Below are positions 12,460-53,737 of a DNA stretch of 64,000 nucleotides, in pieces. The translations under genes and the position numbers were made by a program. The DNA is from an uncultured Alphaproteobacteria bacterium (GTDB lineage: Bacteria; Pseudomonadota; Alphaproteobacteria; RF32; CAG-239). The stretch lies in the NCBI GenBank assembly GCA_934271715.1, contig CAKQRZ010000006.1, forward strand, positions 30,218 through 94,217, in the 5' to 3' direction. The notes beneath the pieces were generated by a model. It was given only the letters and a program-made list of their open reading frames with translations. It did not search any database and was not told the DNA's origin. The stretch's first letter is position 1. Every line of letters begins with the position of its first letter.

Positions 12460-13113
12460 ATGTATAAAAATTTTGAAAAAGGCCGCTCTATGATTGAAAT
12501 GCTCGGCGTGCTGGCAATTATCTGGGTGCTGAGTGTCGGCGGGATTGCCGGATATTCTAAGGCTATGGAGAAATTCAAAATCAATAAACTTATTGAAGAA
12601 TACAGCAATATTATCTTTCACTTAGTAGAACATGAAGAAAATATTTTGAGGTCTAATTCTGATAGTCAAACCGGACTTTCTGGTATTATGGAAGCAATGA
12701 ACATTGTTCCAAACACTTGGTCTAAAATAAATGAAGTTTCATATAAAGACGCGCATGGAAATATTATTTCAGTTTATTCTGTTTTGGCTGATTATGGTAA
12801 AATCATTGGTTTTGACATGTATTTAGGCGGTATTTCCCAAAACGAACAAGGCAATAGCATCAGCGCAAATTTTTCTAAAAAACTATGTTTTGAACTGCTC
12901 AGTACGTTTGCCAATTCTTTGCACTCACAGGTATATATAATATCGGTTGCACGACGCTCTAAATATTGGGAATCAAACGGACGCTGGGGCGATAATTATT
13001 GCGGTGATGAAGAGCATAAATGTCTGGCAGCTGCGACGATTTCTGATTTTCAAGACATGTGCAAATTCTGTGATGATAATGAAGGACAATGTAACATCGG
13101 AATAAGATTTTAG
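12460..13113 (+). CDS. type IV pilin/pseudopilin-like protein, paralog P1 (short 8-aa leader)
   Basis: GGAG RBS 8 nt upstream of the ATG at 12460. Leader MYKNFEKG, then RSMIEMLGVLAIIWVLSVGGIAGY (Gly at -1, Glu at +5, hydrophobic helix). C-terminal C-x6-C-x12-C-x2-C-x6-C module. Confidence 0.8.
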   Translation: MYKNFEKGRSMIEMLGVLAIIWVLSVGGIAGYSKAMEKFKINKLIEEYSNIIFHLVEHEENILRSNSDSQTGLSGIMEAMNIVPNTWSKINEVSYKDAHGNIISVYSVLADYGKIIGFDMYLGGISQNEQGNSISANFSKKLCFELLSTFANSLHSQVYIISVARRSKYWESNGRWGDNYCGDEEHKCLAAATISDFQDMCKFCDDNEGQCNIGIRF

Positions 13114-13118
13114 GATAT

Positions 13119-13165
13119 AAAAAAAGCAGACACCCTGCATTGCCGCAGCAACACAGGGTGTTTTA
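13119..13165. terminator. bidirectional terminator between P1 and groEL
   Basis: Hairpin acaccctg / cagggtgt flanked by A and T runs. Confidence 0.65.
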
Positions 13166-13180
13166 TAATCTGGAGGATTA

Positions 13181-14821
13181 TTAGTACATTCCGCCCATAC
13201 CGCCGGCAGCGGCAGCAGCGTCGCCGCAATGGCATTCTTTTTCCGGAATTTCGGTTACCATTGCCTCGGTTGTGATTAACAAACCGCCGACAGAAGCAGC
13301 GTCTTGCAAAGCGGTGCGGACAACCATTGTCGGGTCAACAATACCGGATTTAATCATATCGGTATATTCGCCGGCTGCAGCATTATAACCATAGTTATAA
13401 TCTTTGCTTTCCAGCAATTTACCGGCAACTACAGCGCCGTCAACACCAGCGTTTTCAGCAATTTGACGCAGCGGAGCCTGCAAAGCGCGGCGGATGATGT
13501 CAATACCGACATTCTGGTCTTGATTATCTGTCTTCAATTCAGCCAACGCTTTGGTTGCATACAGCAATGCGGTACCGCCGCCGGCAACAATGCCCTCTTT
13601 AACGGCTGCGCGGGTTGCGTGCAAAGCATCGTCAATGCGGTCTTTCTTTTCTTTTACTTCTACTTCAGAAGCGCCGCCGACTTTGATAACAGCTACGCCG
13701 CCCGAAAGCTTGCCCAAACGTTCCTGCAGTTTTTCGCGGTCATAGTCAGATGTAGTCTGGCTGATTTCCTGACGAAGCTGCGCAGTTCTGCCGGCAATAG
13801 CTTCTTTATCTCCGGCGCCGTCAATGATTGTGGTGTCGTCTTTGGTGATTTCAACACGTTTAGCTGTACCGAGCATATCCAAAGTAACGTTTTCAATCTT
13901 CATACCCAACTCGTCAGAAATAACCTGACCGCCGGTCAAAATAGCCATATCTTGCAGCATTGCTTTGCGTCTGTCGCCGAAACCAGGTGCTTTTACAGCG
14001 CAAACTTTCAATCCGCCGCGGATTCTGTTGACAACCAAAGTTGCCAAAGCTTCGCCTTCAATGTCTTCGGCAATAATAACCAAAGCGCGGCCTGATTGCA
14101 CAACAGCTTCCAAAATAGAAATCATCGGCTGTAAGTTAGAAATTTTTTTGTCATACAATAAAATGTACGGATTATCATATTCGCAGTTCATTTTTTCCGG
14201 ATTTGTTACAAAATACGGAGACAAATAACCGCGGTCAAACTGCATACCCTCTACAACGTCCAATTCTGTTTCCAAACCTTTGGCGTCTTCAACGGTAATT
14301 ACACCCTCGTTGCCGACTTTTTCCATAGCTTTTGCCAAATATTCGCCGATTGTGGTGTCGCCGTTGGCAGAAATTGTGCCGACCTGAGCGATTTCGCCGG
14401 AAGACTGAACAGCCTTAGAGCGTGATTTAACATCTTTAACTACAGCTTCTACGGCCATATCAATACCGCGTTTAACATCCATCGGATTCATACCGGCGGC
14501 AACAGCTTTGCAGCCTTCGCGGATAATAGCTTCAGCCAAAACTGTAGCGGTTGTTGTACCGTCGCCGGCTTTGTCAGCCGTTTTCTGAGCAACTTCTTTA
14601 ATCAGCTGAGCGCCCATGTTTTCAAATTTATCAGCCAAAGCAACTTCTTTAGCCACGGAAACGCCGTCTTTTGTTAATTTAGGCGCACCGTAAGACTTAT
14701 CCAACATAACGTTGCGGCCTTTAGGACCCAAAGTTACTTTTACGGTTTTAGCCAATGTTTCTACGCCTTTAAGCATTTTGCTGCGGGCGTCAGTTCCAAA
14801 TTTAATGTCTTTTGCAGCCAT
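13181..14821 (-). CDS. groEL: chaperonin GroEL
   Basis: 546 aa, AAKDIKFG...[10 protein letters not shown], with a C-terminal GGMGGMY tail. Confidence 0.98.
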
Positions 14822-14841
14822 TTTATTTTACCTTTCGCAGA

Positions 14842-15129
14842 TTATTCTATAATTGCCAAAATATCAGATTCGTTAACAATCAAACGGGATTCGCCGTTGA
14901 CTTTGATTTCGGTGCCGGCCCATTTGCCAAACAAAACGCGGTCGCCTGCTTTAACAGACAAAGCGATAATTTTTCCGTCCGGCGCAACGCGTCCGTTGCC
15001 GACAGCCTCTACAACGCCCTCAGACGGTTTTTCTTTGGCTGTATCCGGAATAATGATACCGCCGGCGGTTTTTGTTTCTTCATCTACACGTTTAATCAAA
15101 ACTTTATCGTGCAATGGTTTGATGTTCAT
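14842..15129 (-). CDS. groES: co-chaperonin GroES
   Basis: [15 protein letters not shown]..., with an AGGAG RBS 7 nt upstream of this ATG. The longer ORF start was rejected. Confidence 0.95.
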
Positions 15130-15220
15130 TTTAATACTCCTAAACAAATAGTTTTACTTAACTACTTGTTTAGTTAGTGTCCGCAAAATGCGATGTCAAG
15201 AAGCTGCATAAAATTTTTTG

Positions 15221-52718: not shown

Positions 52719-52806
52719 CATTAAAAGCCGAAGTTCTTTATGAACTTAGGCTTTTTGCTTGCCGGTAGAAAAGCTGAAAAAAACAGCCTAAAAACTGTCC
52801 ATTTTA

Positions 52807-52827
52807 AACGGTCGTTTTTTTTACACA
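52807..52827. repeat. solo copy of the 21-bp inverted-repeat arm (IRR type)
   Basis: aacggtcgttttttttacaca is identical to 32514-34 and 41081-101. No partner arm or internal promoter is present at this locus. Confidence 0.9.
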
Positions 52828-52860
52828 CTTTCGACCATAATAACACTTTGATTTTTCCGG

Positions 52861-52890
52861 TTGACTTATGGCGTGAGGCTGTTATAGAAT
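52861..52890 (+). promoter_or_regulatory. sigma70-like promoter of the P5 cassette
   Basis: TTGACT, 18-nt spacer, TAGAAT, upstream of the AGAGGAAAG RBS and the ATG at 52927. Confidence 0.55.
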
Positions 52891-52950
52891 TGGAGTGTAA
52901 ACAACATAATTTTAGAGGAAAGAAAGATGAAAAATAAGCTATTCAAAGGT

Positions 52951-52966
52951 CTCTCTCTCTCTCTCT
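52951..52966 (+). repeat. (CT)8 dinucleotide tract in the 5' coding leader of P5
   Basis: Counted directly. Confidence 0.95.
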
Positions 52967-53092
52967 GCAAATCCTAAACATCTGATTAAAGGCATATTTT
53001 CTGCCGCTCAGCGTGTTTTTGCAGAGTTCGGCGTAAAAAATCACACATTCGGAAATAACAAGTTCAGTAGCAACTCTATAAAGGATTCTGGA

Positions 53093-53737
53093 TTGCTTCG
53101 CGTTGCTCGCAATGACGTCTGCAGCGTGGGACGCTCTATGATAGAAATGCTGGGCGTTTTAGCGATTGTTGGTGTTTTATCCGTGGGCGGCATCGCTGGA
53201 TATTCCAAAGCGATGGAAAAGTGGAAAATAGATAAAGCCACTGAGGAATATTCGCATATTATTTTTGGAATGCTGGAGCATATTGACGATGTGCGGAAAT
53301 TAAGTCCGCAAAGCGGATATACAGGACTTGCCGACTTGGCTATTGCCTTAAACCTTATACCAAACAGCTGGAATAAAATTGGTGATAAACATTTTAAGGA
53401 CGCATACGGAAATATGGTTCAGGTGCAAGCTCGCGCCGAAAATTTAGTCTTTGATATATTTATCGGCGGTATTCAATCAAACAATGACAGCACATCATCT
53501 CCGGGGTGGTCGCCGCGTTTATGCGAATCTTTAATTTCTAATTTAGCGCAACCGTTACATTCTGCCGTAAATATTGTGAATACCTGGCAAAGTGGAAAAG
53601 GTGGGATATATTATCGCGGAGACGCATATTGCGGCGGCAATATACCTTGCGTCAGCAGCATAACGCTCAACAATATTCATGAGATGTGCAAACATTGCGA
53701 TGGCTCTCGCGAGTGCTGTATAACTCTGGAATTTTAG
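53093..53737 (+). CDS. type IV pilin/pseudopilin-like protein, paralog P5 (frame is open upstream to the CT tract)
   Basis: ...CSVG then RSMIEMLGVLAIVGVLSVGGIAGYSKAMEKWK. C-terminal C-x5-C-x12-C-x2-C-x5-CC. A possible TTG start at 53093 has an AAGGA Shine-Dalgarno sequence. Confidence 0.72.
   Translation: MLRVARNDVCSVGRSMIEMLGVLAIVGVLSVGGIAGYSKAMEKWKIDKATEEYSHIIFGMLEHIDDVRKLSPQSGYTGLADLAIALNLIPNSWNKIGDKHFKDAYGNMVQVQARAENLVFDIFIGGIQSNNDSTSSPGWSPRLCESLISNLAQPLHSAVNIVNTWQSGKGGIYYRGDAYCGGNIPCVSSITLNNIHEMCKHCDGSRECCITLEF

Follow-up and report, generated by a model that had tools for sequence, protein, structure and literature searches.

A dispersed family of prepilin-like proteins with CT-repeat frame switches in an uncultured gut alphaproteobacterium

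What kind of protein is encoded by five scattered genes whose products share an almost invariant N-terminus in front of divergent middles, and how is the expression of such genes set? The genes, P1 to P5, lie in a stretch of 64,000 nucleotides on contig CAKQRZ010000006.1 of an uncultured alphaproteobacterium (the whole stretch is called the window below), which also holds a gene for a prepilin peptidase of the A24 type. The explanation we prefer, with a probability of roughly 0.55, is that P1 to P5 belong to a phase-variable, expanded repertoire of prepilin-type proteins that are processed by an A24 peptidase and probably are interchangeable subunits of one type-IV-filament-like structure. The genes in question are the following.

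12460-13113, plus strand: P1; leader MYKNFEKG, then RSMIE; Gly-1 codon at 12481-12483
15221-15934, minus strand: A24 prepilin peptidase, 237 amino acids (Peptidase_A24, E 1.1e-16)
31584-32342, minus strand: P2, the most divergent member; Gly-1 codon at 32244-32246
33858-34691, plus strand: P3; leader frame open from the CT tract (33858); Gly-1 codon at 34053-34055; mature part 34056-34688
41212-42342, plus strand: P4; open leader of 163 codons; Gly-1 codon at 41701-41703; mature part 41704-42339
52931-53737, plus strand: P5; leader frame open from the tract; Gly-1 codon at 53129-53131; mature part 53132-53734

Five genes and their family

In an alignment of the five proteins, the block G|RSMIEMLGVLAI(I/V)(G/W)VLSVGGIAGYSKAM and six cysteines are common to all, the middles are divergent, and overall identity is 31-47%. 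A pattern search of the six-frame translation for GRSMIEMLGVLAI(I/V)(G/W)VLSVGGIAGYSKAM returned exactly five occurrences in the window. All five open reading frames (ORFs) listed in a preliminary description of this DNA are present at the coordinates it gave; the start that it assigned to P4, at 41461, is merely the first ATG inside a long open leader frame. The C-terminal pattern that it reported, C-x5/6-C-x12-C-x2-C-x4..6-C followed by a short tail, occurs in all five proteins; of 217 complete relatives, 171 have it and 164 contain six cysteines. The internal motif FS.KLC.E(L/I), described as common to the five, fared less well: it is exact in P1, P3 and P4, P5 reads WSPRLCESL and P2 TESQCRNL, and the cysteine is the sole residue of this region that is invariant among P1 to P5.

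The identity of the N-termini does not reflect recent copying. The 87-nt segment that encodes the conserved block differs between copies at 9-26 nucleotides, pairwise, and at only 0-2 residues; the means are 20.9 nucleotide and 1.96 amino acid differences per 29 codons, with 72% of the changes at third positions. In the pairwise comparisons about 70-100% of the changes in the block fall at third codon positions, and the remainder includes synonymous switches between Leu or Ser codons. Recent duplication or gene conversion as the source of the identical N-termini is ruled out by these 9-26 synonymous differences per 87 nt, which agree with the earlier suggestion that the genes are old paralogs under purifying selection. 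The Ser codon in Gly-Arg-Ser alternates between TCN and AGT; these three residues are therefore translated and are themselves under purifying selection.

That the family appeared to have five members is an effect of the window. A search with P3 found at least 7,883 protein clusters of relatives, almost all of them from metagenome assemblies; a scan of one genome per GTDB species gave at least 564 stretches with at least 502 confirmed family copies, and a metagenome scan added at least 464 further confirmed copies. All loci that were kept come from human-gut metagenome-assembled genomes (MAGs; Hadza, Nepal, HGM and UMGS). Their titles name uncultured Alphaproteobacteria, apart from some bins titled Bacteroidaceae or Eubacteriales, which we take to be mislabelled. 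At least 43 distinct family genes occur within 290 kb of a single MAG (CAKQDU01), and another MAG has 29, counted in the fetched flanks only. Contigs very often stop a few hundred bases or less from a family gene (for example in loci L002, L006-L008, L010, L015 and L016), and the CT cassettes described below are cut by contig ends in L075, L036 and L073. Short-read assemblies evidently break at the conserved 87-nt block and at the cassettes, and the copy numbers found in MAGs are therefore underestimates. Owing to the same block and cassettes, gene callers give inconsistent starts for members of the family.

The genes are scattered among housekeeping genes, which in the window include those for ribosomal proteins, GroEL, TolQR, TrcR and AcrAB, among others. 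When 1,074 neighboring ORFs from 78 sources were all compared with one another and clustered, no conserved neighbor gene emerged; only the family itself recurs. No relatives were found in 2.9 million viral contigs, and with housekeeping genes as neighbors, the possibility that the family is cargo of phages or mobile elements was rejected. A profile made from the head alone, the part of the protein that follows the N-terminal helix, matched 571 clusters among 1.84 billion representatives, and all 16 of the matching sequences that we read, most of which were the weakest matches listed, carry the same N-terminus. As the head domain was not seen without this N-terminus, the family is closed and lineage-specific. 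The preliminary description did not recognize the family as a characterized one. In the literature we found no paper that describes it or its motif, and nothing specific on gut RF32/CAG-239 Alphaproteobacteria or pilin phase variation; the NCBI pipeline, however, already labels members as 'type II secretion system protein', 'GspH family' or 'FimT/FimU', and the few named clusters among the relatives of P3 read 'MAG: type II secretion system protein [Alphaproteobacteria bacterium]'.

A prepilin-like signal and a peptidase gene

The N-terminus behaves as the class III signal that had been recognized in it. In position counts for 225 copies, anchored solely on EMLGVLA (residues +5 to +11), Gly-1, Ser+2 and Glu+5 are present in every copy, and Met+3 and Ile+4 in 224 each; position +1 is Arg in 219 copies, Lys in four, His in one and Ser in one. 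Position -2 is variable (V/A/F/K/L/S/T), as is everything upstream of it, and sequence conservation begins exactly at Gly-1, the canonical cleavage position, behind leaders of unrelated sequence. In the nearly invariant block MLGVLAIIGVLSVGGIAGY, Glu+5 is followed by about 20 hydrophobic residues. Classic leaders of 6-12 residues that end in Gly, such as MYKNFEKG and MKQNQFG, are found in 75 of 226 relatives. Ile4, Glu5, Ala11-Ile12-Ile13-Gly14, Leu16, Ile21 and Tyr24 of the PilA N-terminus all coincide with the family block. The Pfam profile N_methyl (PF07963) matches 45 of 60 members, always below its threshold (E 0.0026-1), and the NCBIfam profiles that match the N-terminal segment are all of the prepilin type (PRK10506, PRK10574, GspH, GspG and TIGR02532) and likewise sub-threshold; elsewhere in the family proteins there are scattered, unrelated weak NCBIfam matches. 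We say that the family proteins work like prepilins and do not file them as established type IV pilins.

In agreement with the preliminary description, the window encodes one Peptidase_A24 protein and no assembly genes for a pilus or a type II secretion system (T2SS). The peptidase has both catalytic Asp motifs, VEIDKRFMLLPD (given also as IDKRFMLLPD) and GGGDIKL, and is conserved across the lineage at 60-92% identity. It is the candidate processing enzyme for the family.

One could argue that the signal is not of class III at all. The N-terminus might be an ordinary Sec signal, which signal peptidase I would cleave after YSKA, for instance, or a signal anchor that stays uncut; its resemblance to pilins would then be superficial. 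The sub-threshold matches to the prepilin profiles would be compatible with this, the sequence Ser-Lys-Ala conforms to the -3/-1 rule of signal peptidase I sites, prepilins do not typically have Arg at +1, and the head is not pilin-like. However, sequence conservation is not a property of Sec signals, and in this family 29 residues are near-invariant in 137-225 copies despite saturated synonymous change. The abrupt onset of conservation at Gly-1 behind unrelated leaders, the Glu placed inside the hydrophobic core at the pilin +5 position, and a dedicated A24 peptidase that is kept in the lineage also speak against a Sec signal, and the AlphaFold2 (AF2) model predicts a helix that continues through the putative signal peptidase I site. 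We judge this explanation to be very unlikely.

Start cassettes, CT repeats and leaders

The genes differ in what precedes the N-terminal block. P1 has a GGAG ribosome-binding site upstream, a classic short leader, and no repeat tract. A tRNA-His gene (12065-12141, plus strand) lies directly upstream of P1, and the hairpin followed by a run of T (GCCCGC...GCGGGTTTT) that separates the two suggests that P1 has its own expression signals. Upstream of P3, P4 and P5 we find a portable cassette composed of a promoter, a ribosome-binding site, an ATG (MKNKLFKG) and a (CT)n tract, and MKNKLFKG aligns with the P1 leader MYKNFEKG.

33783-33884, plus strand: CT cassette of P3; promoter-like TTGACT-16-TATAAT at 33783-33810, ribosome-binding site GAGGAAAG, ATG at 33847
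33870-33884, plus strand: P3 tract (TC)7.5, 15 nt; ATG out of frame with the pilin frame, off
41134-41238, plus strand: CT cassette of P4; predicted promoter TTGACT-18-TAGAAT at 41134-41163, ribosome-binding site, ATG at 41201
41224-41238, plus strand: P4 tract (TC)7.5, 15 nt; off
52861-52966, plus strand: CT cassette of P5; promoter-like TTGACT...TATAGAAT within 52853-52890, ribosome-binding site, ATG at 52927
52950-52966, plus strand: P5 tract (TC)8.5, 17 nt; off

The putative promoters are sigma-70-like (e.g., 41134-41163), a strong ribosome-binding site precedes each ATG, and 20 nt separate the ATG from the (TC)n tract. The three tracts are the only dinucleotide repeats that Tandem Repeats Finder detects in the window. 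From the tract to Gly-1 the pilin frame is open for 65 (P3), 163 (P4) and 66 (P5) codons; none of the three ATGs is in frame with it, and tracts of 13 or 19 nt are predicted to restore the frame. The same arrangement holds for 41 independent cassette genes from other genomes and metagenomes: between the tract and Gly-1 the pilin frame contains no stop in 4,325 codons, in contrast to 361 and 240 stops in the other two frames, and the longest open leader stretch has 303 codons. At the orthologous locus with the gene order Fic-P3-TrcR-L31, the tract measures 13 nt in one sample (L078), with DNA that is otherwise identical, and 19 nt in another (L079), with a few substitutions in the flanks. Both alleles are in frame and thus on, and yield proteins of 280 and 282 residues (P0003 and P0001, respectively). 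In-frame alleles of the CT cassettes occur in five independent contigs. The open pilin frame and the length polymorphism between samples support the interpretation, read from the DNA, that the CT tracts are a real frame switch, and the earlier idea of switch cassettes holds, in this form, for P3 to P5. About 20% of the family of 40 or more genes carries the CT cassette. In one other sample the P5 gene is missing from the orthologous site and a different sequence is found there (L162 1-330 compared with window 52863-53180); in yet another (L163) P5 is present with the same 17-nt tract.

The tracts might also have nothing to do with switching at the level of DNA. Ribosomes or RNA polymerase might slip by +2 or -2 on (CU)n, or the genes might be silent, decaying pseudogenes with an irrelevant ATG. 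It fits these ideas that 34 of the 41 tracts are exactly 15 nt long and only three are in frame, and a shift by two bases would re-pair perfectly on a dinucleotide repeat. Nevertheless, the tract varies in length in the DNA itself (13, 15 and 19 nt among orthologs of one locus whose flanks are near-identical), and the in-frame alleles come from five independent contigs. Decay is excluded by the leader frame, which has no stop in 4,325 codons, together with the purifying selection on the mature parts. We regard slippage or decay as a highly improbable account of the tracts.

With the frame switch as the preferred reading, the leaders in the on state would comprise 55 to more than 300 residues before Gly-1. 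Besides the 75 classic short leaders, the 226 relatives include at least 86 whose leaders, of the CT type and of a second type with a module called cassette 2, would measure 30 to more than 300 residues, 33 with other long or mosaic leaders, and 32 that are cut by contig ends. The long leaders are built from a conserved post-tract module, ANPKHLIKG.FFAAQRVFAEF, and from in-frame elements that resemble repetitive extragenic palindromes (REP-like elements), for example LLRRYTPRND and HRPWCDKILGT.PRMTGGRGAN.

34008-34040, 41560-41592, 32259-32291 (minus strand), 40816-40843 and 41663-41690: REP-like elements, GC-rich, in leader-coding regions; example GGATTGCTTCGTCGTTACACTCCTCGCAATGAC, translated as LLRRYTPRND

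The first of these is the LLRRYTPRND module in the leader of P3, and the 163-codon leader of P4 is made of in-frame REP-like modules. Such in-frame insertions recall the in-frame palindromic elements of Rickettsia. With a median net charge of about +8 the leaders are strongly basic, as would suit their retention in the cytoplasm, the side on which A24 peptidases act. Orthologs of one mature protein carry different leader mosaics across samples (P3 and P5: P0005-P0007 and P0121), and the leader may be a disposable region that tolerates insertions.

The start of P2 is of the second type. Its leader MLESMNFLRGKNRGEGNGLLRRYISCNDASSEG, which precedes RSMIE, is in frame with the start codon of cassette 2.

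32343-32533, minus strand: cassette 2, the upstream module of P2; AGGAG ribosome-binding site, then a 174-bp unit that resembles a miniature inverted-repeat transposable element (MITE)
40927-41100, no strand assigned: second 174-bp inverted-repeat module, between ORF 39140-40909 (minus strand) and the CT cassette of P4

The 174-bp unit at 32360-32533 consists of perfect 20-bp inverted repeats, AACGGTCGTTTTTTTTACAC (32360-32379 and 32514-32533), around a 134-bp core with a putative sigma-70-like promoter, TTGCCA-18-TATATT (32469..32440). A lone copy of the inverted repeat lies at 52807-52826. The ribosome-binding site and the start M(L/F)KS(I/M)(E/N)FLRGK(S/N)RG of cassette 2 are common to P2 and ORF 39140-40909, and in related loci the module stands upstream of genes that start with M(L/F)KS(I/M)EF(L/F)(R/K)GKSRG. 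The module, which lies beside two of the genes, looks like an invertible promoter. In 19 copies from related loci the spacing is always 134-135 bp and the orientation relative to the downstream gene is always the same, and the T8 tract of the module is invariant in 42 of 42 copies. No inversion was found, and an invertible promoter is rejected on present data; we treat the module as a MITE-like portable promoter and not as a demonstrated switch. The product of ORF 39140-40909, a protein of 589 residues with no Pfam or NCBIfam match, begins with the portable start module, continues with in-frame REP-like modules, and then has a Sec-like signal peptide, LALLAFLCLFTTAAEA. Since this ORF uses the start module of P2, the expression cassettes serve other exported proteins too.

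A gene for a Fic-domain protein (32606-33748, minus strand) sits between P2 and P3 and is not linked to the family in other loci. The same is true of a gene at 28699-30504 (minus strand), which encodes a protein of 601 residues with a phage-lysozyme domain at residues 326-454. Two ORFs at 17632-18969 (445 residues) and 18970-20094 (374 residues, a membrane protein), both on the minus strand, are adjacent to each other; like ORF 39140-40909, they match no known protein family even at E values up to 5.

Head domain, assembly and comparison with known systems

What would the switched genes deliver? The AF2 model of full-length P1 has a 46-residue N-terminal helix that is continuous with a compact head (predicted local distance difference test, pLDDT, 87.9), and the head modelled alone reaches a pLDDT of 93.8 and a predicted TM score of 0.89. 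In our proposal the precursor would enter the inner membrane while its basic leader remains in the cytoplasm, and the single A24 peptidase of the genome (15221-15934) would cut after the invariant Gly. Cleavage would leave Arg-Ser-Met-Ile-Glu as the new N-terminus of an invariant hydrophobic helix, and this helix would bear, outside the cytoplasm, a variable alpha/beta head of about 175 residues that is rich in disulfides (six Cys). The paralogs would be interchangeable subunits of one type-IV-filament-like fibre or pseudopilus, whose assembly machine would be encoded elsewhere; we consider the subunits interchangeable because the helix is near-identical across paralogs while the heads diverge. 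Three expression classes may be distinguished: plain short leaders, as in P1; the portable promoter and start module of cassette 2, as in P2; and the promoter-RBS-ATG(MKNKLFKG)-(CT)n cassette (RBS, ribosome-binding site), as in P3 to P5, in which slipped-strand changes of the CT tract would decide whether the start codon shares the frame of a long, repeat-built leader that can be cleaved off. With the three classes combined, every cell would express its own, stochastically determined part of a large surface repertoire.

Several findings weigh against this picture. Arg at +1 is atypical, not being a hydrophobic residue (Phe, Met, Leu or Val) as in prepilins, and the profile scores are well short of the curated thresholds: 9.7-13 bits against 21.2 for N_methyl and 12.1-12.5 bits against 16.3 for TIGR02532. 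Leaders of 55 to more than 300 residues, as they would be in the on state, are far longer than the 5-30 residues usual for prepilins. The A24 peptidase is without the N-terminal methyltransferase domain (DiS_P_DiS), and even in relatives with 53% identity it is not linked to pilus genes. The preliminary description had proposed a comparison with pilin folds; for the confident head model it came out negative, since no solved pilin or pseudopilin is among the top 50 Foldseek matches in the PDB for either the full-length or the head-only model. The best match has an E value of 0.01 and a TM score of at most 0.29, and Y-family polymerase and Cas7 structures are at the top. The gp41 coiled coil, the Dpo4 little finger and Cas7, suggested as structural homologs by two Foldseek searches and one profile search, were judged to be chance matches. 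A profile search of the PDB sequences found no relative of the head, and no Pfam match to SBP_bac_10/DUF1559 is present in the five window proteins or in 60 members of the family. In the consensus assemblies 38 of the 41 CT tracts are off; switching may be rare, or expression may be achieved otherwise. Two explanations are conceivable: that most cells keep the majority of these loci off, as happens in opa-like families, or that slippage at the RNA or ribosome level plays a part.

No assembly ATPase, platform protein or secretin was found in the window or in the 10 kb beyond each of its ends, and the combination of Walker A motif and Asp box typical of PilB/GspE/TadA/VirB11 proteins is absent from the 1.8 Mb that lie within 10 kb of about 220 family genes. 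The housekeeping genes of the window occur 0-2 times in these 1.8 Mb, which thus sample about one genome, and the missing ATPase is therefore not evidence of absence. BamA, LpxD and TolQR indicate a diderm envelope, and a surface fibre would therefore need a conduit through the outer membrane.

The main rival explanation is that the precursors are processed and never polymerize. The products would either stay anchored in the inner membrane or be released into the periplasm or the medium, as single proteins with a binding or protective role. Recognition by the peptidase and membrane anchoring would be the only tasks of the invariant helix, and the proteins would resemble the dispersed, expanded N_methyl + SBP_bac_10 families of Planctomycetes or the archaeal sugar-binding proteins with class III signals. 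The assembly genes are unseen in the window, in its flanks and near the roughly 220 copies, the head has no recognizable pilin fold, and the peptidase gene stands alone among housekeeping genes; moreover, there are Planctomycetes with 41-100 such genes spread evenly, whose products fractionate with membranes (PMC8567305). However, the near-invariance of 29 N-terminal residues in front of heads with less than 30% identity exceeds the needs of anchoring, and is what co-assembly into one helix bundle would demand; and at this depth of sampling the missing machinery is uninformative. We consider the alternative without polymerization possible, though doubtful. A bolder reading of the repertoire appears unlikely to us: that the family is the main contingency-gene system of a widespread uncultured gut alphaproteobacterial lineage, with 40 or more pilin-like genes per small genome, mobile expression modules, leaders of up to about 300 residues of in-frame repeat elements that are tolerated because the A24 peptidase discards them, a novel head fold and an Arg N-terminus, and that it is displayed or secreted by a non-canonical machine (neither a type IV pilus, nor T2SS, nor Tad) or by none.

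How does the repertoire compare with systems that are better understood? With type IV pilins and T2SS pseudopilins (N_methyl PF07963, TIGR02532, PilD/GspO) the family shares Gly-1, Glu+5 and the stretch of about 20 hydrophobic residues, the short leaders rich in Lys and Asn (in a third of the copies), a long helix with a globular head and C-terminal disulfides, and an A24 peptidase in the genome. It differs from them in having Arg-Ser-Met in place of Phe/Met-Thr-Leu at +1 to +3, in profile scores below the cut-offs, in a head fold unmatched in the PDB, in dozens of dispersed paralogs instead of a pilin operon, in a peptidase that lacks the methyltransferase domain, with no ATPase, platform or secretin found so far, and in many leaders of 55 to more than 300 residues.

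In the oipA/sabA/hopZ-type genes of Helicobacter pylori, a CT tract in the region that codes for the signal peptide causes phase variation through slipped-strand changes (PMC10564699). As in these genes, and in opa-type genes of Neisseria, the tract in the family described here (CT as in oipA/sabA) lies just after the start codon within the leader-coding region and sets the frame of an exported surface protein, and the multigene family is mostly off. In contrast to these systems, the switch here is part of a portable promoter-RBS-ATG-(CT)n cassette, it precedes a prepilin-type cleavage site and not a Sec signal, 50-300 codons of repeat-derived and presumably discarded leader lie in between, and the host, an alphaproteobacterium, is a gut commensal that is not known as a pathogen.

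Many dispersed paralogs with a common prepilin-type N-terminus are also known from Planctomycetes, Verrucomicrobia and Lentisphaerae, where tens to about 100 proteins with N_methyl and SBP_bac_10/DUF1559 domains are encoded evenly along the chromosome (PMC8567305). Compared with those, the family has an unrelated head (no SBP_bac_10 match), belongs to a different phylum, has a non-canonical cleavage context, and possesses repeat switches. The pilE/pilS system of Neisseria likewise combines a conserved pilin N-terminus with many variable heads in one genome. A system of silent cassettes of this kind was rejected for the family, as all copies are complete genes, each of which has an N-terminus and start signals of its own. 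Unlike in pilE/pilS, the copies have diverged synonymously and hence are not homogenized by gene conversion, and variation would arise by the choice of genes that are on or off, not by recombination into one expression site.

Neither proteins of the prepilin type nor frame switches made of CT repeats are new as such. What we did not find described is their combination, and its scale (one genome with at least 43 paralogs, and metagenomes with thousands of clusters), the non-canonical site G|RSMIE, the unmatched head fold, and the very long, repeat-built and apparently disposable leaders. If our interpretation is correct, the family would offer a first functional handle on surface variation in an uncultured, globally distributed lineage of gut alphaproteobacteria, which would bear on adhesion or on the evasion of the immune system or of phages. 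It would also widen the substrate range of prepilin peptidases with respect to both the residue at +1 and the length of the leader, and it would provide a clean natural system in which to study portable phase-variation cassettes.

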